Source: Craspedostauros australis
Taxonomy: Eukaryota
Direction of reading: 5' to 3'
NCBI GenBank assembly: GCA_030167865.1
Contig: JALAGF010005889.1
Span: forward strand, 1 to 33,507
DNA: 33,507 nt
Within the stretch, counting starts at the first letter, position 1, and each line of letters opens with the position of its first letter. A program made the translations under genes and the position numbers. The notes under the pieces are model-generated. The model saw only the letters and a program-made list of their open reading frames with translations, was not told the origin of the DNA and did no database searches. Positions 2,136 through 20,146 of this stretch are shown here, in pieces.

Positions 2136-5100
2136 ATGTGGAATTCCGCTGGAACAAGCGGGGACACGGGCCGAACGGGAACCGGAAACGTCCAGTTCAA
2201 CGAGATCACGCCGCTCGTGGGTGCCAGCAACTCCCCAGGCTCATCGGGAAAGCCGTTGGCAAAGGCAGGTGCGACTGGCTCCACCAACTCGTTGGCATCG
2301 TCCTTCACGGACATGCACGAAGAGATCAACGAGATGCTGCAAACGGACGGCATCGTCAAGGATGTCCCCAAGCCCGCATCCCGCCGGTTCGCAAAGTGCG
2401 CCATTCTTCTCTTGAGCTTGGCGACCATCTCCATCTTCCTCACTTTCCTCGTGACGTCTTCGATACGTGGCGAGGGTGGCGGATCAGACGAAACCGACAC
2501 CGGCAACAAGCACCGCCATCAGCGCAATCCTCAGCTCGATGCATTCCCTCCTTTCAGCACCAAGGATCCCATCATCGATCTGGCCATCCGTCCGTACAAC
2601 AGATCCACCGACTCCTCACCGGCCGACTCCATCCATCAGCTGCAATACCTCGACGATGGAACCTTCTCGCAGGCGGTGCCGACCAACGCGTGGTACCAAA
2701 ACATGCTGATGGCGTACGGTGAGCCAAGCGCGGCGCACCGTGCCTACACCTGCCCCTACATCATCGACACCGTCGGACAGGTGCCTGGACTTCGCGTGCA
2801 CAACGCCTACATCGATGCATTCGACAGCGTCATCCAAGCATCCTTCAACGAGCTTCATGCTGTCACCTTGGGAGCCGCACATCAGGAATGGGATAATGAC
2901 GACCCGCCCAGCGACATGTCCCACGCCTACAACGTGACTCATGCCACCGACCTTGGATTTTCGCTTGAATGGGTACGTACAGTTGCGCTCTTCACGCATG
3001 CGTGTGTTCCAATTTTCTGCCTTCGTCGTGCCATATTGTTGGCATCCTTGATGAAAGCACAACCAGCCACTTGCATGTCACACTCACACTCATTTTACTT
3101 CGTCGTCATCGTCGTGGTTATGTTCATCACCCCCGCCCTCTCCCAAAACACAAAAAAATGAATTGAATTCTGCAGAAGGAATACGGCATGACAGCACCGG
3201 TGGTGCGTGGTATGCCATACACCACAGTGATTTACGATCACGACCATCTCGCTTCCAAGACATTCCCAACACTCGTCACTGGCGTTGCCATGCTGTCGGC
3301 ACCGGTCATCGACCAGGCCACCGAGATGCAATGCTCCGGCAACAACCCCGAGGCCTTCCAAGTCGACAAAGAAATCGAGCTCAAGTTCGTGCAGAGCGAC
3401 ATGACCTGGCTCATGTTCTTCTCTGAACCCGTCCTCGTCAAGTGCCACGCAACCCTCAAGGAAGGCAACAGCGTCCTCCAAGTCGTCGGCAAGGCATCCT
3501 CAGCACCTCTCGTCGTTCGATTCGCACTTTCCACACCATGCACGGACCATCGCAATCCAAACACGTGCAGGACCGGCACTTACGAAGACCTCGCAGAAGT
3601 TTTGAGAGCGCACGCCGACATTTATCCAGGAAGCCAGACCTCCGTGCGTTATTCTTTCGACAACGACAGCGACGACGACAATGCCGCCAACATCTACCTC
3701 GATTGGGATGCGCAGTCCATGTCCAACAAGGGCTTCGCAGACGACAGCGCCATCCAAGTGAAGCAGCAGGATACTTCCAGAAGCGATGAGATGCTCATGT
3801 TTGCGCTTCCGCATCACCATGACAACCTCGTCGAACCAGCCTTCGAAGCTGACGAGAACCACCTTTGCCGACCAAGCATGCTGGGACCCACGTGCCTCGT
3901 GTCTGGCAACGTCTGGAACATCCGCGAGGAATTGCCCAAGCTGAGCTTCCGCGCTCCTCGGGCACCAACCCCCGCGTCCATCCGCCTCATCGGCAAGGCC
4001 CTGCTGACCGATATCGACTTTGAACTTCCGGAATTCTTCATGAGAGGAGCAGGCGACACCTACTTCTCTGGCAAGATGCTCGCCAAGCTCGCCCGCATCC
4101 TCTTGGTCCACGAGGAGGTCGACGAAATCTGCAAGCACCACCACAAGCTCCGCTCCGACAACCTCTTCGCCGTGCCATGTCACAACACCACCCTCCCATC
4201 GCGCAAAAAGGTCCGCGCGGCCTTCGACAGACTCAAGCATGGAACGCAGGCCTGGATCAATGGAACTGCCGAGACCCCATTCGTGTACGACGTCCAATGG
4301 GGTGGCTTCTCAAGCTGCGGGTGCATGTTCCGCGATGGCAAGTGCCAAGACACGGGCGATGCCTGCCCCGGATTTACGGACCATGGTCTCAACTTCGGCA
4401 ACGCATTCTACAATGACCAGCACTTCCATTACGGATACCACATCTACGCGGCATCCGTCGTCGCCCACTTTGACCCTGCGTGGGGACGTGCCCATTGGGA
4501 GCAGGTGCTCTTGATGATCCGAAGTATCGCCAACCCATCGACGGATGATCCCATGTTCCCTCTCCACCGTCACAAGGATTGGTACCAAGGCAGTTCGTGG
4601 GCGAGCGGCATTCCACGACCACCGTACCCCAACGGCAAGAACCAAGAATCGTCCAGCGAGGCCATCGCAGGGTACGAAGCCGTTGGTCTGTTCGGGCAGG
4701 TCATGAGAAAGGCTTGGCACAAGAAGGACAACGAGAAGGAGGCAATCTCCACGAACATCATGAATGTCGGAAGGTTGCTCACCGCCACGGAGGTCCGATC
4801 CGCCCAACGCTACTGGCACGTCGTCCAGAACGACGAAGCACTTCGCATCTACCCGAAGCAATACACCCACAAGGTCGTTGGCATTGTTTGGAGCACCATG
4901 GCACAGTTTGGTACCTGGTTTGGAAATGCCGGATACCTTCCATACGGAATCCAACTCCTCCCGCTCACCTCGATCTCAGAACAACGCGACAACCTCCAAT
5001 GGGTGAACGAAATGTACGATCCGCTCTCCCGCGCATGCGGCAAGGACTTCAAGTGCACCCTGGATGGCTGGTCCTTCCTGTCCCTCGCCATGCTGGCGAC

Positions 5101-7598: not shown

Positions 7599-9233
7599 AT
7601 GAGAGCCTCCAACCAACACGTCAATACAGCAACGGCGATGCAGTTCGATGAAGGCTTGTCAAGGACGGGTCTCGCTTGGGCATTGAGCGCGCCGTTGATC
7701 GGCGGGCTGCTGTTCGGCTATGATATCGGTGTCATTTCGTACATCCTGGCGCAATGGACGTCAACGTCAACGAACGATGACATTCGATGGATCCGTTGGA
7801 TATCCGATTCGCCCTTCCTGCAGGGTGCCATGGTGTCCTCGTCCTCCTTCGGGGCGTTGCTGGGCAGCATGGTACTGTTCGTCATTGCGGACACCATCGG
7901 CCGTCGCAAGGAATTGCAGTGGTCGGCGTTGTGCTACGGTTGCGGAGCCATGCTGCAGCTCGTTCCACTTGGCATGGCCCATTGGAAGGTGCCGGGCATC
8001 CTGCTCTTCCTCATCGGTCGGATCGTCTTGGGCGTCGGCATCGGATTCGCGTTGCACGGCGGTCCTGCCTATTTGGGAGAGATGTCGCCGCCATCCATGC
8101 GCGGTGCGTTGGTGACCATCATGGAAGCCTGCATCGTGCTGGGTCTGCTGTTCGGGTACATTGTGGGCGATGCCATGTCGACGACGCGCACCAACGAATT
8201 GCTGATCGCCATGCCGTGCGTCATTGCCCCGGCGCTGCTCATGGGATACGTCGCGACGCGCATCGTCCCTGAAAGTGCGCGATGGCAATTGTTGCAAACA
8301 CCAGCCGATCGTGACGCCATCGTGCAATCGATCCGGTTCCTGTATCCGCATCATGCGGAGAGGGTATTCGCAACGTTGCAGCAATCGGTGCGCAATAACG
8401 ATCGGCGTTTGTCCGAATCGCCGCTGTCACTGTCGGCTATCGTGCACAAACTGGAAATGCTTGTGAAGCCCGCGCATCGCCGTCCTCTCGTCGCCGGGGC
8501 TGGTCTGGCAATGTTGCAACAGCTGACGGGGCAACCTTCGATTCTCAGTTTCGTGGCGCCGATCCTTTCCACCGTTGGATTATCCGATCATTTCAGCGTC
8601 GCCATCGGGATCTTCAAGTTGGTCGTCACGTTGATCATGGCCCGGTTGGTGGAAACTACAGGACGTCGACCACTACTGGTGGTTGGACTTGGCCTCATGC
8701 TGATCTCGTTGCTCGGCATGATGGTGTTGGCAGCCGAGACGCAAGAACCCATGTATACCCTGATCTTCCTACTGATCTATATGCTGGGATACCAGATGGG
8801 CATAGGCCCCATCACAATGATCGTGAACAGCGAGATCTTCCCATCGGCCATGCGTGCCACGGGCATCGCCACGAGCTCGCAGCTCAGCTTTCTGTCGCAT
8901 GCCATGGTGCAGTTTCTGTATCCACCCATCGTGGATTGGTTCGGATTGTCGACGGCATTTGGAGGCTTCGCTTGCTTTGCGGCGATCGGCATCTGGTTCG
9001 TGTATCGCTGCATCCCGGAAACGCAAGGGCGGTCGTTGGAAGCGATCGAACGGGAGATGCGGGGAAGTGACGAAGCAGCGACGGACGGAAACGACGATGG
9101 ACAGCGAACGAGACGAGGGCAAACAGGTGATGTGGAAACACCAAACGAGGACGTGGAACAGTGCGCGGATGAGATGGGAACGTCCCACATCGAAGATGAA
9201 TATCGCTCCTTGATCTCAGGAGGCAGTTCATGA
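7599..9233 (+). CDS. MFS sugar porter, vacuolar glucose transporter (VGT)/D-xylose-proton symporter-like
   Basis: Sugar-porter signatures GGLLFGYDIG, DTIGRR, YLGEMSPPSMRG, PESARW, QQLTGQPSIL (VGT-type GQPS), GRRPLL, SEIFP and PETQGRSLEAIE; about 12 hydrophobic segments; intronless. Confidence 0.93.
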   Translation: MRASNQHVNTATAMQFDEGLSRTGLAWALSAPLIGGLLFGYDIGVISYILAQWTSTSTNDDIRWIRWISDSPFLQGAMVSSSSFGALLGSMVLFVIADTIGRRKELQWSALCYGCGAMLQLVPLGMAHWKVPGILLFLIGRIVLGVGIGFALHGGPAYLGEMSPPSMRGALVTIMEACIVLGLLFGYIVGDAMSTTRTNELLIAMPCVIAPALLMGYVATRIVPESARWQLLQTPADRDAIVQSIRFLYPHHAERVFATLQQSVRNNDRRLSESPLSLSAIVHKLEMLVKPAHRRPLVAGAGLAMLQQLTGQPSILSFVAPILSTVGLSDHFSVAIGIFKLVVTLIMARLVETTGRRPLLVVGLGLMLISLLGMMVLAAETQEPMYTLIFLLIYMLGYQMGIGPITMIVNSEIFPSAMRATGIATSSQLSFLSHAMVQFLYPPIVDWFGLSTAFGGFACFAAIGIWFVYRCIPETQGRSLEAIEREMRGSDEAATDGNDDGQRTRRGQTGDVETPNEDVEQCADEMGTSHIEDEYRSLISGGSS

Positions 9234-10629: not shown

Positions 10630-10998
10630 GATCGTGCTGGTCGACGATTGGAATCTTGTAGACATGACACTGAATCTAGAAAGATGCAGTCGGAGAGAGC
10701 CCGAAAACATCATGACAAATGTTGGGGAGGACGTTGGGTTACGTCAAGGACTTTCTGTTCGCAATACGCTTTCGTTGGCTTCTCTGTCGCGGAGGAGGAA
10801 GGGTTGCTCTGTTGACCATGATGGTGGTCGGGAGGGGTCGAGCGCAGAAAGGGCAACAAGGAGACGCGCTGCCATACTACTATACACGTACTCGCACTGT
10901 TGCTGGAAAAGGCAGAATGGAGAAGAGTGGCAGACTGTGTGAATCGTGGAGTGCATTGGAGGACTTTATTGGTCTGTGCTTTCTGCGCAATGATCTTG

Positions 10999-11024
10999 CT
11001 CTCTCTCTCTCTCTCTCTCTCTCT
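10999..11024. repeat. (CT)13 microsatellite
   Basis: Directly visible. Confidence 0.95.
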
Positions 11025-11319
11025 TGTGGTGGCGAATGAGCGGGGCAAAGTTTGATGTACGTATCGGCGATGGGACGCTTCGCAACCATCATCGCATCTG
11101 ATGGACGAGCGAGCGACTTGGATGGAGGTGATGGCCATGTGATGCCGATAGCATCAAGAGGTTTGTTGACGTGATGACAACAGCGAACAATTGCATCAAC
11201 AAAGCGATGGTGGAGCTGGAAGCACTGAACAGAATTCTTTCGACATGTCATGGAAGCGCAACTACGAATACAAGGAGGAAGAGCAAATCTGTTGGTTGAG
11301 TGGTGGAATTCCACTTCTC

Positions 11320-11387
11320 TTGACAACCAAGCATTGACAACCAAGCATTGACAACCAAGTATTGACAACCAAGCATTGACAACCAAG
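11320..11387. repeat. 14-bp minisatellite TTGACAACCAAGCA, about 5 copies
   Basis: Head-to-tail units at 11320, 11334, 11348 (one mismatch), 11362 and 11376 (partial); no spacers. Confidence 0.95.
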
Positions 11388-13478
11388 AGTGGACAAACGA
11401 GTGGATGAGAAAGAAGGATGGCTTCAACAGACACCGACGCCGACACGGTCGCAAATGAACGAAGTGGACATGAAAGAGTTGGTTTCGGTTTTTGTTGTTG
11501 GACAGAATGGAGCGGGGGCACGACAGCCATTCAAAGAGGGGAGGGAGCAACAAGACACAGTACACAAGAGATGGACTGAAACGGCGGCATCTGTGCGAAA
11601 AGTTCAACAATGTTGTGAAGGATTGTGGATGATTGGTGGATCGGTTGGCAACATCAGCGAGCAGCAACACCAAGGGAACACAAATGACAACAAGGATAAT
11701 CCAATGTTTGCTGCTGCTGCGGCTCCCGATGATGATGATCAATGTCTGCCTTCACTGGGTCACCACCACCAAACAGCCCTGTCTTGCCAAGTGTGCCGAA
11801 CATACTTACGATTAACCCCATGTTCTTGTTGGTTGTTCTGCCTTTGCTTCACTCCTGGGCGGTACAGCCACAAGAGAGCAGAATACTTGTTCGAAAAGCC
11901 CCTTTTTGTTCTGTCTTGCATCGCTGTTTCGCAGCCACACATGAGCCTCTGTTGCTGTTTGATGTTTGGGCAGCAACGAGAGGGTGTGGTTGGACCTCGG
12001 ACGATGGCCAAACTTCCGGCTTTGCGACAGAATTCGCTACCTTCGTTTCCACACGAGTTGGAGTATGTCAGCCAACGAAACACCCCAGTTCCGTACAAAG
12101 CCTATCCTGCACGCGCGCCCCAAATCGTTGATGTGGTTGCTTCGCCACGTCCGAATGACATCGCGGACGATTCCACATCACGCCGCTTCGTGCCCGTCCA
12201 CACCTTACCGAAACCCTTCGAGACTCTTCTTGGATCATGGCAGTGGATGTCGCTTGTACTTTCGATAGGAACTGGAAGCTCTGACGGCGTACAACGTCAA
12301 CTTAGGTCGATGCGAGGTCGATAAGTACAAGCAGCTGGCGATGTCGAACAAAGAACATGAGGTGGACTGCAATTTCACGTTTTGGATAAGCAACAGTTGC
12401 ACCCCAAGGCCAATCACGGCGCGCAACGGGGGACGTCCAAATGGCACTCCTGTGAGGCTGTGGTGAAGACACGTAGACTCCACAGGTTGAAGATCCCCAG
12501 CGGCGCGCAGGACGGCGCGCGCGCATTTTTCTCGGAACGCATTCCTTCCATTCAATTCGAGGACACGTAAGTCAACTGGTGTCAAGGAGCTTGTCGTATA
12601 CGACACGGAATCAATGCTATTTTACTTATGGCCTCCTCTGATGTCACCCAGGCAACACTGAAAAGTTAACAAAAGTGATGGATGCATTAAGTGGCCGAAG
12701 AACATGTCTCCCACACGTGGGGAAGTGACTGATGCAATCGCATCGCGCGAATTTCCAATACAAAGTGCCGAAGAAAAGGTTCCCTCGTAGAATTCCACGC
12801 ATCCTCCTATGGTACGTGTTTTGGACATTGCGGTCTTTGATGGGTTCCGCGAACGCCGGCGCACATCAAAAAAATAGTGGACGAGTGCCACCCGTTGCGG
12901 CAGAGGAGGAAAGGCAGTGTACAAACAGTAGCGGCGCTTGCACGAGAACGCGTACGTTTACGGTGCAAGAGTACGAGTACGTGTACCAACTTGGGAGAGT
13001 ACTCGTGAGAGCTCGGTACAGTTCGTTGGTAGTGGTTCCACACGGGCAAAATCAAACAACGACCAAAGAACAAGAGAAATCAAAGCGCAACAACGCCGAG
13101 GAAAGCAAAGAGGAGAGGAACCAAAAAACAGCCGTCCAACCGCAAACCGTCGTTGCGCATCAACCACAGCAACAACTCGTAACCACAGCCACAGGCACAG
13201 CCCAACAGGATTCGTGCCGCTTCACATCAGCACCATCAATCACAGCCGCGCCCACAAACTTGCAAACAAGAACAATAGCAACAGAAACAACATCATCTTT
13301 CTTGATTGAAACCCGAAGTACAAGAAGACATCAACTCACATCACATTAGAGTGCCCTGTCTTGTCCTGTCCCACTCCGCTCTACTCTACTTCACATCAGC
13401 TCACATCAAGTGTCGGTTACCTTCATCCCCATCACAGGATTCCAATCGACCACAGCTCCAACAGCCTTGCATCCGTCT

Positions 13479-13510
13479 ATCCATCCATCCATCCATCCAT
13501 CCATCCATCC
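13479..13510. repeat. (ATCC)8 microsatellite
   Basis: Directly visible. Confidence 0.95.
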
Positions 13511-13589
13511 TTTGATTGGCTTTAGTCCCACCCATCATCCTCTCATCGTCACGAACCCAGACACAACCACAACGCAAACACTTGTCAGA

Positions 13590-14517
13590 GTAAGTAAGCC
13601 GATTGGCCATTCCTGCATCCTGCATCCATCGAGACATCCATGTACGCACGTCCGCATCCTGGCTGTAATTGATGCCATCAGACCAGCGATGGACCGCCGG
13701 TTTGCTCAGTTCGCGTGGACACGATGCAAAGTCGGCATTAAACTTGATGGATATAGGTACCCGCCGATGCAGTCTCAACGATCGTGGGCAATCAAAGGAT
13801 CGACCATGAAGATCATCAAAAGCGGCATCGGCAGTAGCAACGGCGACAAGCGAACGGTTGCGCCAGTGCCTCGTACATCACATCACCCCGCATCCAGACG
13901 AAAACGGCCTACGACGCGGTCGTGCGTGTGCGCGTATCTTTTTTGCGAGATCAACCGCATGAATGCCAGTTCCCGGACTACGACAAGTCGAAGTCGAAGC
14001 GCACATCCTGATTCCCCTCGAATCTGCAGTAGATTCCATTTACATCACTGTAACGGCTGCGAACCCGTGGCCAGGCCTTCTCAGTCGTATCGCTTGGCAT
14101 CGCCTCGTTTCGTAGATCTCACACACATCTTTCCCATCACTTCTCTTCTTCTCTCTTTCTTTCTCTGCTTTGATACGTTGTGCGGAATCTGTTTTGGAAC
14201 TTTTTGCCACCATTGTCTTTACTGCCTCTGCCACATCACGCTGCCTCATGTTGCTTCACTGCGATACACTGTTTTGAATCCTTCCATTCCCTCATTCCTT
14301 CGCGACAATCACACATAAATTCGATCTATGTTTTTATCCATCAACGAACCACATGCTTCCAACATCTTCCAATCTTTGATCCTATCATTCACTCATCCAT
14401 TCGTCGAACATCAATTCCATCAAACGCTGTTGCGCACGGATACCGTACGCACTTGATCCATTCCTCCCATCACACTCGTGTGCGCCCATCATGCTTTCTG
14501 CGATGTCCCTGCTCCAG
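13590..14517 (+). other. Putative 5'-UTR intron of the bZIP gene
   Basis: GTAAGT donor at 13590; CTCCAG acceptor ending 14517 preceded by 400 nt without AG; flanking exonic sequence lacks ATG. The acceptor is better supported than the donor. Confidence 0.65.
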
Positions 14518-14703
14518 GATCACAAACGATCTTCGCAATCACAAGACATCACTGCAACAACCACAACAACAACAACTTCTTCGGCGTTCACCTTCACGTC
14601 GACACTCAAGTTCGCACCAATCCCAGCACCCCCACCCTTCGTCCTTCATCATCGATCAATCCATCCAGGCACAACAGCATTAGCAGCAACGACAACAGCA
14701 ACA

Positions 14704-17002
14704 ATGACTTCTGCAGCAGACTGGCCACAAGACGATTCCATGCCAAACATCGTCTCCTCCAACGACCTCTTCGATGGCGACATCCTCGGTGAGGAACTCA
14801 TCGACATCTACGGCGCCGCCTCCGCCATTGCCGAGGATGGTGCTGCTGGTGTGACCGACGAGAACAACGACAAGTCCATGACCGACGTCACCAGCCTCCT
14901 CTGCGGCACCACGACCATCAAGATGGAGGACACCATCCCTCAGGTGGACAACGACTTCGATGCCGACGACGTCATCAACGATGGTCTCGGTGCTTTCCGC
15001 CCATCGACCTCCTTCAATGATCTCTCCAAGCTCCTCTCGCCTTCGCCGGATGATACCCCCAGCTCGGATACCATGATGTCCATTCCAACCGCGACCACGG
15101 CTGCTGCCTCGGCATCGCCTTCCCCGCTCCCACCCATCGACGTGACGACCAATGCCACGGCACCAGTTGCCGTCGCCGCCGCAACGACGATGACTGCTAC
15201 TGCCCTTCCGACTGCCGCACCGGCAACAACGACGGGCACGAAGCGAGGGGCCCCGTCCACGGCCCACACAGCGACGCAACCATCACCGACGAAACGCCAC
15301 GCGGGTCTCTCGAGGAAGGTTTCCGTCGGTGCCACCCTCTCCTCCCAGGGTGTCGCCACCGTCTCACCCACAGGCGCCAGCCCGATTGGATCTTCGGTTC
15401 CGAATGCCGTGGCGACAACGCATGTCGTCAACATCGCTCAAGCATCCAACCTGCCGACGCTGCCCACAATATCTAGCAGCACCATCCGCAAGGCCTCTCT
15501 GCCACCGACGTTGCAGCAAAAGGCCGCGGCCCCAGTCGCTGCAGTGGCATCGGCAGTTCCGGCAACTGCCCTCCCTGTCGCTGCCGCCGTCGCACCCAGA
15601 GTCGCGGCCTCGGGCATCCGGATGATGGCCGTGCCACGCACAGCACCAGCCGGTATCGTCGTCCAACCCAAGCCAGCAGTTGCGGCCCAACCAAGACCAC
15701 AGCAAGCCGTTCCAGCGCCACAGCAGACCGCTCCCGGCGTCGCATCTCTGCAGACCGCAGCCACCGAGGCTGACTTCAAGTCCGTGGCACAGGCCGCCGT
15801 CTCCAGCCTCATCGTCAACGCCACTGCCGCCAAGGCAGAGCAGACGGTCGCACCAGCGCCAATCCCGGCAGCGCCCAAGGCAGGCGTCCCCAAGATCAAT
15901 GTCAGCACGGAGCACGTCAAGGCCCTGACCGGCAGCAACTGGGTCTCCGTCTGCGGAGGCGGCTCCGATGTCAACCAACCATCGTCCGCCGCCGACAAGG
16001 CCAACAACCGCGCCAGACGCCAGAACCTCACACCCGACGAACGGGCCCGGCAGAACCGCGACCGCAACCGCGAGCATGCCCGCAACACACGCCTGCGCAA
16101 GAAGGCCTACGTCGAGGAGCTCAAGCGCACCCTCGTTGAACTCGTCACGCAACGCGATGCCACCGACCTCGAAACGCGTCAGTCCGCCCAACGCGAGCTG
16201 GAGCAGAGGGAGGTGCGATTCCGCGTCATTGAGGAATTCCTCAAGCTGCGTGGCCACAACCAACCCAACGCCGCGCGATGGGCCGCCATTCTCGATGACG
16301 GCTTCACGTTGACGTTGCCCGTCACGGACTTTCGCAAGATGGTGCAGCCGCAGTGCGCCCATGCGCCACGAGCCTTTGAGCAGGTTCTGACGGGCGTGGC
16401 CGAGGTCATGGCGGATTCGACGCACTGCGCCAACTTTCTGCAGACTTTGGGCAAGGGACACGCCGCCAGCAATGTCAGCCTCGTGTACCATTGCGATCGC
16501 AAGGACTTCTTCATGGACAATTGCAACGCCGTCCTGGAATGGGTGGCGACGACGTCGGGGGCTGTCGAGAAGGTACGTGATGCTTTGTGTATTTGTTCTA
16601 TTGGCGTTGATTGGTGCGTTCGCATTCTCGCTCAACCGCTGACACAAGCTTCGTCTCATTTTTCTCGTAATTCAGGGAGCCGCATCGGAACTGTCCTTCA
16701 AGGGAACCGTGAAGGCATCCTTCAGCCCGGCTTCCAACAAGCTGCTGTCTGCCGCGGTCTCATTCGACACCGGCATCGTGCTTTCTCAGCTCAATCATCT
16801 GATCGACAGCGTCAAGCCACATGAGGCATGCGACGAGCAAGTTGCCGCACAGTATGCGGCCAACGAGGCCGATGCCATCTTGGATTCGTTGCAGATGCCA
16901 CGCATCGAATCCGCACCGGTGCCCACCAACGTCAACGTGGTGCCGGAATCCTCCTGCTCCGAGGCATCCTCCATCAAGGGAGAATGCTCGGATGTCGAGT
17001 AA
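14704..17002 (+). CDS. bZIP transcription factor (stramenopile RNREHA type) with low-complexity N-terminus and folded C-terminal domain; exons 14704-16572 and 16676-17002 (~731 aa)
   Basis: Basic region ERARQNRDRNREHARNTRLRKKAYVEELKRTLVEL; splice joins ...GAVEK|GAASELSFKG in frame; ATG 14704 follows an A/C-rich leader. Confidence 0.9.
16573..16675 (+). other. Spliceosomal intron (phase 0) of the bZIP gene
   Basis: GTACGT donor, CTGAC branch site at 16639, TTCAG acceptor; restores the frame with ORF 16709-17002. Confidence 0.88.
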
Positions 17003-17436
17003 ATAACGCAAACACGAAGATATGAGGCACATCCCCCAAATAGAGCGAGAGTACCAGGGAAAGGGGAAGATGGCCGCATTCATAGACATCGTGAGACCAA
17101 TACCCAAAGGGGCGTACGGTGGGATTGGTCCACTGCATTCACACAAACACACACACACACACTTTCATGTACAGTTACACACATCATGTTCATTACCATC
17201 CGCATTTGCGGAAACAAAGCTATTCACATAACCAAACAAACAACAACAACGATAATACGTATAAACACTCTCGAAGATTTATTGCCCCAAAACAAACACA
17301 AGCTGGTATAATATGATGATACACGTGGATGCGATCTCGGTGGTGTCTAGAGTATTATTACTTCCAGTATATGTCGTAGAATAGTATCATGAGCACAGAT
17401 GATGCAGCTGTTCCGAATGGAGTACAGCAGCAGCAC

Positions 17437-17814
17437 TCAGGCATGAAACCTCTGGTAATCGGGAACCTTCGCTGCTGGCTTCGCATGATGATGATGTGGG
17501 TGCTTCTTTCTTCTGGCAATAGGCTTGCGACCCGACTCCTTGCCTTCGTCTTCGCTCTCATCGCTGGAGTCCGTCGACGACTCCCCAAACTCTCGCTTCT
17601 TGTGGAAGATGCAGCATCGCTTCGACGACTTGCGTCCCATGCCCTCATTGTCCACGACACCGTCTTCCCACCGCACCGTCGGTCTGGCACGCAGCGTCAA
17701 CGGCAGCACGGGGTCGTTCTCTGGCAACGCCGCCTGCGTGACGGTCACCGTGGCGCTGGGCTGATCCGGTCCCGTCGGCGGCGCCGGCGTCGTGTTCTCT
17801 GCGTTCGGTTCCAT
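17437..17814 (-). CDS. YPI1: Protein phosphatase 1 inhibitor-3 (Ypi1/PPP1R11 family)
   Basis: RVxW-like motif (RPTVRW) followed by the family signature [20 protein letters not shown] and [11 protein letters not shown]. Confidence 0.92.
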
Positions 17815-18802: not shown

Positions 18803-20146
18803 ATGTTGCACGAAATGATGTGCCGTCCAGGACAGGGGCGACTTGCGCTGACGGCGCGTTCGTCGTCATGCGAGGAGTTGCAGGACACTGCCGGATCCTG
18901 CGACTGCTGTCTGCATGGACACGCGTGTTACAATCTCCATGCCATCGCTCATGTGCACAGTGAGATGTCCTTGCATCGTCTTTGCAAAGATGCGCAGTGC
19001 ACAGTGGAAGAGATTCGGGAAGCATTGGCATTGTCGCCCAGCGAGGTTCGCAAGATGGACGCCTTCGGCCGCACGGTACGTTCGGATGATGTTGGAATGG
19101 AGTCGAGTTCGTGTTGAGGGCAACTTGTGCACGTTATTATGTTGACATGTTGACATGTTGACATGTTGTTGATGTGGTTCGGATACTCTGGAACAGGAAC
19201 GCAGCATCAATGCGCTCTGTGATTCTCGCTCTGTTCGGGAAACTGCCGCTGCTGCCGCTCACCAAATGTCCCTCCATCTGCCGCCCGCCATCCTTTTCCT
19301 TGTTCAATTCCATCACTCTAATTTCACATGATTGCCATTCCAATTTTCATTCACAACACACAGCCGTTGTTCTATGCCATCCAACAATGTTGCACCACCG
19401 ACGTCATCGATGTTGTATTCAGCGCCCACGAGGACGCGCTGCTGGAACCCGACTGCTGCGGTGACACTCCGCTGCACTTGCTGTATTCACCATCTCGCAA
19501 AGCGGCATTGCTGCAGACCGTGCTGCGCCGACAACCCTCATTGGCGTACAGCAAAACCAAAAGCTTCACGTCCCAAACGCTGCTGCGCAAGATCTGCAGG
19601 CCGTGGACGCGCGTCTTCGATGACGTGCGATCCGTCGTGCAGCGTTGTTCCAAACTGCAGGACGGTTGGGACAAGATGATGCTCACGGTGCAAGCGGCGT
19701 ACCGCAGTCGGCACATGTCCGACGATGCTCCGCAATTGCATGCCGCGATGGAAGTTATTTCCGATCCCATCTTGCTGTCGCATATTGTGGAGATGTATCC
19801 GGAACAGGCCGCGATGGTGATGGGCACCGGATATCCTCTGCACCACTTCCTGCAGATACCGCATGCCGGCGCGCACCGCGTTGTGCAAAAGCTGATCCGT
19901 GCCTATCCGGCGGCCTGCCACGTGCTGCATCGCGGACGTCTGCCGATCAATATTGCATTATCATCGGGATACGAATGGACGACGGGCATTGAGGATATCA
20001 TGCACGCCAATCCGGATGCGCTGCGAACGATCGAGGCGCAATCCGGGTTGCATCCCTTCGCGGTGGCCTTGGTGACGCGGAGGTGTCCGATAGAGACGGC
20101 ATTTGCTCTGTTACGTGAGAATCCATGCATCCGGAATGCGATCTAG
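18803..20146 (+). CDS. Ankyrin-like repeat protein; exons 18803-19075 and 19364-20146 (~351 aa)
   Basis: Splice creates the ankyrin consensus DAFGRT|PLFYAI; further repeats GDTPLHLL, GYPLHHFL, GRLPINIAL and SGLHPFAVA are typical of diatom ankyrin-like proteins. Confidence 0.82.
19076..19363 (+). other. Spliceosomal intron (phase 0) of the ankyrin-like gene; contains (ATGTTGAC)3 at 19139-19162
   Basis: GTACGT donor, ACACAG acceptor, in-frame join. Confidence 0.85.

Follow-up and report, generated by a model that had tools for sequence, protein, structure and literature searches.

The window that we analyzed, a stretch of 33,507 nt from the genome of Craspedostauros australis, carries on its + strand a gene for a bZIP protein with a long non-coding region in front of it. 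The features of this locus are as follows.

12808 to 12823, + strand: probable promoter element, a 16-mer with an ACGT core (putative function)
13040 to 13589, + strand: leader exon 1, ATG-free, its start placed by composition
13590 to 14517, + strand: predicted 5'-UTR intron of 928 nt, with 14 ATGs
13590 to 13595, + strand: 5' splice site GTAAGT, read from the sequence
13590 to 14115, + strand: 5' half of the intron, which would form the lariat loop, with normal AG content
14116 to 14515, + strand: AG-exclusion zone of 400 nt, non-coding and unstructured
14118 to 14122, + strand: predicted distant branch point CTCAC, with branch A at 14121 (-397)
14123 to 14172, + strand: polypyrimidine tract directly after the branch motif, 86% pyrimidine
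14353 to 14379, + strand: 8-codon ORF in the zone, which would be a uORF only with a partly exonic or a retained zone
14445 to 14517, + strand: rival intron of 73 nt with a GTACGC donor and no branch consensus inside
14512 to 14517, + strand: 3' splice site CTCCAG, the first AG after the branch motif, at -187 from the ATG
14518 to 14703, + strand: leader part of exon 2, ATG-free
14704 to 16572, + strand: coding exon of 623 codons, with an N-terminal motif, a low-complexity linker, a bZIP basic region, and a conserved C-terminal domain
16573 to 16675, + strand: coding intron of 103 nt, with a proximal branch motif CTGAC at -34 and an AG gap of 25 nt
16676 to 17002, + strand: last coding exon to the stop codon, read from the sequence and matching ortholog C-termini

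Judging from sequence comparison, the gene product is a pan-diatom transcription factor with a bZIP basic region, its family name being taken from homolog labels. Residues 395-623 have 656 homologs. The 120 that were listed are 62-72% identical, and the named ones among them are diatoms, several labelled bZIP. Pfam did not recognize the bZIP exon, and the atlas lead for the family is bZIP_2 (0.88) and BZP1_C (0.84). The N terminus aligns with ortholog proteins, including transcriptome-derived ones, and the ATG at 14704 is therefore the conserved start; orthologs do not share the in-frame ATGs at 14491 and 14503. Splicing out 16573-16675 keeps the ortholog alignment going.

The leader exons and the predicted leader intron

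Leader exon 1 has no ATG, against 4.8 expected, and its composition (A 0.34, C 0.34, T 0.17) is like that of exon 2. Both 13040-13589 and 14518-14703 are of the A/C-rich leader type, whereas the AG-free zone between them is T/C-rich. The ATG-free, leader-like block of about 550 nt stops exactly at GTAAGT, the most frequent donor among the predicted introns of this genome (10 of 38), and a tandem donor-like GTAAGC lies beside it at 13594. The sequence-only reading had described ATG-free flanks at 12843-13639 and 14518-14703 around a putative intron rich in ATGs, and the counts are 0, 0, and 14. Its coordinates for GTAAGT (13590), CTCAC (14118-14122), and the end of CTCCAG (14517) are all right. 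Three ORFs over the leader (13689-14318, 12732-13349, and 11455-12324) were considered as genes and rejected, for Pfam matches none of them and the coding scores of the first two are negative.

Upstream of the leader, the element at 12808 is one of seven ACGT cores in 12400-13050. It is the only 16-mer common to 12000-14700 and the 3 kb upstream of one ortholog locus, L027, where the identical 16-mer is found ahead of the leader exon, some 640 nt upstream of the ATG. Comparing the upstream region of the window with the 80 ortholog loci by blastn gave no match before the coding region. Within 12000-17500, a sequencing run (share 0.11, not recorded as RNA) covers 16674-17292 and 17338-17500 only. 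The splicing of the leader intron is deduced from the sequence and from orthologs.

The start could be located in 73 of the 80 ortholog loci, which form 56 clusters; 44 of these include an RNA-like contig. Nine loci, picked by reading, have a 5'-UTR intron at this place: six are complete (GTAAGT...YAG) and three have its 3' end only. The complete ones are 159-437 nt long and all six begin with GTAAGT; the acceptors lie at -24 to -175 from the ATG. All nine carry CTCAC or CTAAC at -28 to -60 from the acceptor, which identifies the branch motif. Ortholog coding introns are about 70-120 nt long, with branch motifs at -19 to -57. In a further comparison, locus L086 has about 170 nt with a GTGAGC donor that are absent from its RNA-like relative L091. 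The UTR intron is absent at three genomic loci (L066, L069, and L080), each colinear with RNA-like relatives. A search of orthologous diatom bZIP loci, which the sequence-only reading had proposed, thus finds the intron at nine of them, shorter than 928 nt and with a proximal branch motif. Since the orthologous introns use proximal motifs, the distant branch point predicted here is not a trait that orthologs of the bZIP gene share.

The interval 13590-14517 has GT-AG ends, a non-coding interior, and a position common to orthologs, as a U2-type 5'-UTR intron should. The predicted 928-nt leader intron is well supported by this comparison, and with it the spliced, ATG-free leader that the sequence-only reading had put forward. 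The tract could instead be promoter DNA, with no intron and a transcription start downstream of about 14500. We find this very improbable: the UTR intron is conserved in orthologs, the promoter-like 16-mer common with L027 is at 12808, and the leader-like block ends exactly at GTAAGT.

The AG-free zone and its predicted branch point

The AG dinucleotides that bound the zone begin at 14114 and 14516 on the + strand, leaving the 400 nt of 14116-14515 without any AG, where 9.7 would be expected from base content. GA occurs 13 times in the same tract, so that the earlier description (no AG, about a dozen GA) was exact. Only 3 of 100,000 base shuffles of the zone were AG-free. Given these shuffles and the 13 GA, base composition does not account for the zone. 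On neither strand does the window have a longer AG gap, the runner-up having 225 nt, and the zone ranks third (645, 405, and 400 nt) among the 79,530 AG gaps in 715 kb of the C. australis genome. The 526 nt upstream of it hold 27 AG, and the next AG gap upstream is 29 nt. No repeat was seen in the zone on reading the sequence. Its composition (A.20, C.33, G.12, T.35) matches that of 35 other zones of the genome (A.21, C.33, G.16, T.30). Two other readings of the zone were rejected: that of a coding exon with dual use, as the coding score is -33 to -42 in all three frames, and that of a fold bringing branch point and acceptor together, as the folding (z = +0.95) is no better than in shuffles.

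Within the intron, CTCAC at 14118 is the sole occurrence of CTCAC, CTGAC, or CTAAC, and it lies at +3 of the zone. The best 30-nt pyrimidine window of the intron falls in 14123-14172, right behind this motif, with 29 pyrimidines of 30, against 22 of 30 just before the acceptor. Alternative branch candidates are three CTCAT at -270, -224, and -123. The last is the CT[ACG]A[CT] word nearest to the acceptor, none lying within 120 nt of it. Hence, 14116-14515 has what is expected of a distant branch point: at least 100 nt to the acceptor, normal AG content upstream, and a branch motif with pyrimidines at its 5' edge. The zone is probably the tail of a 928-nt leader intron that branches about 400 nt before its end. 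A distant branch point near 14121, as suggested in the sequence-only reading, also draws support by inference from where CTCAC lies in AG-free zones across the genome, namely at their 5' edge (see below).

The events at this intron could be as follows. The bZIP pre-mRNA would begin at about 13040 and bear an ancestral 5'-UTR intron, by now enlarged to 928 nt. In the longer introns of this genome, growth would have taken place on both sides of the branch point, towards the acceptor and upstream. U2 would engage CTCAC at 14118-14122, aided by the strong pyrimidine tract right behind it. After branching at A14121, the first downstream AG, 397 nt away, would be used, presumably by scanning. A new AG arising in the zone would turn into a cryptic acceptor and would therefore be selected against. 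The product would be an ATG-free leader of about 740 nt ahead of the conserved start at 14704, and splicing of the leader intron from A14121 would be constitutive. What fits this model less well is that the spliced leader would be without the short uORF present in 27 of 36 ortholog leaders.

AG-free introns across the genome

Our sample of 715 kb is about 1% of the assembly, and all frequencies given here are therefore estimates. It contains 36 AG-free gaps of at least 200 nt, three of them of at least 400 nt (645, 405, and 400 nt). The 110 kb from 13 loci of other diatoms hold no gap of at least 200 nt, where about 5.5 would be expected at the same rate. Many of the long AG-free gaps of the sampled genome end at coding-intron acceptors. 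The longest, 645 nt where about 30 AG would be expected, belongs to a 705-nt intron of the TCTP gene, located between the parts that match Pfam TCTP positions 1-30 and 39-140. This intron lies on the minus strand of G000:C5881, at about 10802-11506. A 574-nt intron with 405 AG-free nt has CTCAC at +3 followed by pyrimidines, the exact layout of the bZIP leader intron; we take its gene to encode a membrane protein. Other AG-free stretches in introns have 228, 272, 255, and 219 nt. The respective genes are presumably those of calmodulin (an EF-hand gene), a proteasome ATPase, a PARP-like protein, and a pyruvate-dehydrogenase E2-like protein. Among the long-zone genes, Pfam confirms TCTP and the EF-hand protein.

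To describe introns independently of their AG spacing, acceptors were placed by coding score, which gave 38 calls, 2 of them intergenic and dropped. In the remaining 36 predicted coding introns, which are 110-683 nt long, the median first AG gap is 86.5 nt, with at least 100 nt in 15 introns and at least 150 nt in 10, whereas the median second gap is only 9 nt. Gaps of at least 100 nt are found for GA in only 3 of the 36 introns and for GG in 9, and the long GG gaps mean that composition contributes. These counts carry the limits of the intron finder, which misses short introns (it dropped the 103-nt intron of the bZIP gene itself) and misplaces some acceptors. In three short-gap calls the profile has gaps, which points to a misplaced acceptor, and Pfam assigns one family to both sides in only 9 of the 36 exon pairs. 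Long AG-free introns appear, from the sequence, to be a routine design of the longer introns in this genome, including those of housekeeping genes.

For the position of branch motifs, we collected 35 zones from the first 612 kb, selected as AG-free over at least 120 nt and ending at YAG followed by coding sequence; the bZIP leader zone and two minus-strand zones of the window were left out. Of these zones, 18 have CTCAC within their first 60 nt, against 7.2 expected (0 of 500 local shuffles), and the motif is under-represented in the last 60 nt (3 of 35, against 5.9). Control gaps show no such excess (9 of 111, against 9.6). At the 5' edge, the overlapping word CACTC is likewise enriched (13 against 7.1) and CTCAT is not (3 against 7.7). 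In the 31 zones that have a CTCAC, CTGAC, or CTAAC, the first one lies at a median of 127 nt from the acceptor. The other 4 zones have none, and in several the first motif is well inside the zone (at +116 in TCTP), so that weaker branch sites probably also work.

These data also bear on the possibility that the leader intron is real but branches near its acceptor, at a degenerate site, with weak motifs or G-poor composition making the tail intolerant of AG. The last 65 nt do contain weak TCAC, TCAT, and TGAT words, G makes up only 12% of the zone, and zones in this genome often reach upstream of their first CTCAC. Furthermore, according to Gooding et al. (2006; PMC1431707), only one-fifth to one-half of human zones of at least 100 nt mark a distant branch point. 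We still hold such a proximal site to be distinctly unlikely: no CT[ACG]A[CT] lies within 120 nt of the acceptor, branch motifs are depleted rather than enriched at the 3' ends of the genome's zones, and the same bases yield GA 13 times. For the genome as a whole, we lean, if only slightly, towards a branch point moved far upstream, with a large share of the longer introns branching 100-500 nt before the acceptor, including constitutive introns of the TCTP, presumed calmodulin, and presumed proteasome ATPase genes. The first AG would be taken over unstructured RNA, growth between branch point and acceptor would be tolerated, and AG would be purged. The bZIP leader intron would then, on a reading that we favor by a little, be an extreme member of the long AG-free introns.

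The sequence-only reading took very long AG-exclusion zones as signals of distant branch points, often on regulated introns. Special regulation of the intron with this zone is not supported: the same layout is found in coding introns of TCTP, presumed calmodulin, and other housekeeping genes, and the orthologs have proximal motifs. Given the genome-wide zones and the placement of CTCAC, the zone is best seen as the ordinary intron design of the species, not as a sign of special regulation. An altered U2 or the loss of U2AF35 was considered as the cause of the shift and found unsupported. Of 10 U2 copies, the 2 that were read have a canonical branch-pairing sequence, and the genome has a U2AF35-like frame, which we take to be U2AF35. 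A simple loss therefore does not account for the shift.

In vertebrates, distant branch points are rare and are known from regulated exons. Cases given by Gooding et al. (2006; PMC1431707) are PTB exon 11, nPTB, GABBR1 exon 23, and alpha-tropomyosin exon 3. Like these, the bZIP leader intron has an AG-free zone up to the acceptor, a branch consensus with a pyrimidine tract at its 5' edge, and normal AG content upstream, and its 400 nt are comparable to the 381 nt of PTB and the 438 nt of nPTB given there. It differs from them in its motif (CTCAC), in its position in the 5' UTR, and in a layout that is not conserved in orthologs. In the human data of the same source, AG-free zones of at least 100 nt precede 838 of 67,334 exons (1.2%), those of at least 150 nt precede 165 of 67,334, and exons with zones of at least 100 nt tend to alternative splicing. 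This is unlike the 15 of 36 predicted coding introns found here, with housekeeping genes included. By itself, the predicted bZIP intron would count as an ordinary member of the distant-branch-point class.

As regards diatoms, introns of Phaeodactylum tricornutum have a mean of 142 nt and are frequently retained, according to Rastogi et al. (2018; PMC5859163). The predicted introns of C. australis resemble ordinary diatom introns in their GT-AG ends, their GTAAGT, GTACGT, and GTGAGT donors, and the canonical U2 branch-pairing sequence, and the long-zone set differs from these in its branch motif, at a median of 127 nt from the acceptor. Branch-to-AG distances can shift genome-wide in one lineage, and the cases described by Irimia and Roy (2008; PMC2483917) are very short and fixed (2-11 nt) or, in Saccharomyces cerevisiae, variable, with typical means of about 28-32 nt. 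The shift proposed here would be opposite to these, to 100-500 nt and without folding. Among the titles listed in searches of mostly non-subscription journals, none concerned distant branch points or AG-exclusion zones in diatoms. The kind of intron is known; none of these titles showed it as the routine layout of a diatom genome whose relatives keep normal spacing in the orthologous introns. If this use is routine, the genome could be a natural test bed for the choice of far 3' splice sites, opposing first-AG scanning to AG-dependent recognition, and, with relatives at normal spacing, for the evolution of intron architecture. There are also consequences for annotation, as gene finders expect the branch point to be close to the acceptor and overlook introns in UTRs.

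Upstream ORFs of the ortholog leaders and intron retention

The 36 spliced ortholog leaders, of at least 200 nt each, have 37 ATGs where 112 would be expected. None lies within 100 nt of the start and 19 lie between -300 and -201. The frames that they open are short, with a median of 7 codons against 19. At least one short uORF is found in 27 of the 36 leaders and just one in 19, and these counts are not independent because the loci are related. The predicted spliced leader of the C. australis gene, with no ATG in 12843-13589 or 14518-14703, has no uORF, like 9 of the 36 orthologs.

A partly exonic zone would give back the uORF of the ortholog family. In one version there would be two introns, from 13590 to an acceptor at 14029 or 14115 and then 14445-14517. 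In another, a second transcription start near 14118 would make the zone a leader with short uORFs (14248 and 14353) or with an in-frame extension of 71 residues from 14491. Either could coexist with the long leader intron as an alternative isoform. In keeping with this, the ORF at 14353 sits 92 nt before the GTACGC at 14445, and the uORF-to-donor distance is about 87-175 nt in orthologs. The acceptor at 14029 has CTGAT at -19, a donor-like site lies 55-120 nt from the acceptor in only 2 of the 35 other zones, and 14491-14703 has a coding score of +13. On the other hand, 329 exonic nt without AG would be left unexplained, the 73-nt intron and the acceptor at 14115 lack a branch consensus, the composition of the zone is that of intron tails and not of leaders, and orthologs do not conserve the 71-residue extension. 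A profile built from the uORF modules of 34 orthologs failed to single out 14353 (E = 54), and it is uninformative because the tracts are of low complexity. We consider a partly exonic zone unlikely.

The proposal that regulated retention of the intron acts as a translational switch, its 14 upstream ATGs turning bZIP translation off, is compatible with the distant branch point. Among the 44 RNA-like ortholog clusters, 3 (L024, L056, and L060) keep the UTR intron with unbroken coding regions, genomic relatives of L024 and L056 have introns at that place, and the ortholog spliced leaders are purged of ATG, as described above. In P. tricornutum, about 24% of the genes show retention, which responds to nitrogen (PMC5859163). 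This commonness of retention in diatoms also lessens what the 3 contigs can say for a switch, and they may be slow-splicing intermediates. Furthermore, the ATG count of the intron is near chance (14 against 10.3 expected), and L066, L069, and L080 have no UTR intron. The long zone is neither specific to this gene nor conserved in its orthologs and therefore gives no sign of regulation here. Retained transcripts of orthologs thus lend this part of the sequence-only reading slight encouragement, and the switch itself appears doubtful to us; we favor a constitutively spliced leader intron.

The uORFs of the orthologs recall another kind of control. GCN4, ATF4, and cpc-1 are bZIP mRNAs controlled by uORFs. 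The ortholog leaders resemble the uORF1 arrangement of GCN4 and ATF4 in that they retain a very short uORF, located 200-490 nt upstream of the start, and are otherwise purged of ATG. They differ from GCN4, ATF4, and cpc-1 in that they usually have one uORF, with no conserved second inhibitory uORF, and the protein here is of a different bZIP family. The predicted leader of the C. australis gene itself has no short reinitiation uORF of the GCN4/ATF4 type. None of the titles listed in the searches of mostly non-subscription journals concerned a uORF in this bZIP. In one clade, nine ortholog loci have a uORF of 2-3 codons; each of the three stop codons is found among them, and one insertion has the size of a codon.

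Long AG-free intron tails

Intron tails lacking the AG dinucleotide up to the acceptor, which we read as a sign of a distant branch point, occur elsewhere in the C. australis genome and in other introns of the window. The longest such zone in the 715 kb sampled belongs to an intron of the TCTP gene, whose final 645 nt contain no AG vs about 30 expected, and among the zones found this intron is the best test case. Among the zones at loci L129, L149, L168 and L136, two take up nearly the entire predicted intron.

AG-free zones and intron tails in C. australis
Contig C5881, about 10802-11506 (locus L126, 802-1506), minus strand: TCTP gene intron, 705 nt, final 645 nt AG-free
Contig C6492, 7268-7672 (locus L129), minus strand: AG-free zone, 405 nt, tail of a predicted coding intron
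Locus L149, 7693-8004: AG-free zone, 312 nt, tail of a predicted coding intron
Locus L168, about 8276-8602: AG-free zone, 327 nt, tail of a predicted coding intron
Locus L136, 1338-1692: AG-free zone, 355 nt
Window 2973-3175: intron, AG-free tail 107 nt
Window 19205-19361: intron, AG-free tail 157 nt
Window 21154 to about 21630: intron, AG-free tail probably about 94 nt

The genome has 10 U2 snRNA matches above the Rfam cut-off, and the branch-pairing sequence is canonical in both of the copies inspected (2 of 10).

Upstream region and possible retained forms of the bZIP gene

Seven ACGT cores lie 5' of the bZIP gene (window 12400-13050), one of them inside a 16-mer shared with the diatom ortholog L027, and autoregulation by a bZIP is possible. 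The intronic ATGs at 14491 and 14503 share the bZIP reading frame, with no stop between (window 14491-14703). Retained or late-starting RNA could yield a protein extended by 71 or 67 residues; these starts are not conserved among orthologs. The 5'-UTR intron is still present in the transcript-like ortholog contigs L024, L056 and L060, despite their intact coding regions. The one contig aligned to the bZIP gene starts precisely at window 16674, the point from which spliced and unspliced versions of the coding intron share the same sequence; this suggests only weakly, if at all, that the run contained both.

Leaders of the diatom orthologs

A very short uORF is conserved 389-488 nt upstream of the ATG in L065, L066, L068, L069, L071, L073, L074, L079 and L080, and a short uORF also occurs in most of the remaining ortholog leaders of this diatom bZIP family, which are otherwise purged of ATGs. 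This uORF is a candidate for translational control of the GCN4/ATF4 type.

Closer to the ATG (about 30-70 nt upstream), the leaders of L065-L069, L071, L073, L074 and L079-L081 carry a strongly conserved motif, TCACTCACCTT ... AGGTACCAAT, resembling a 3' splice site or a small hairpin. The motif is still present in transcript-like contigs and is not spliced.
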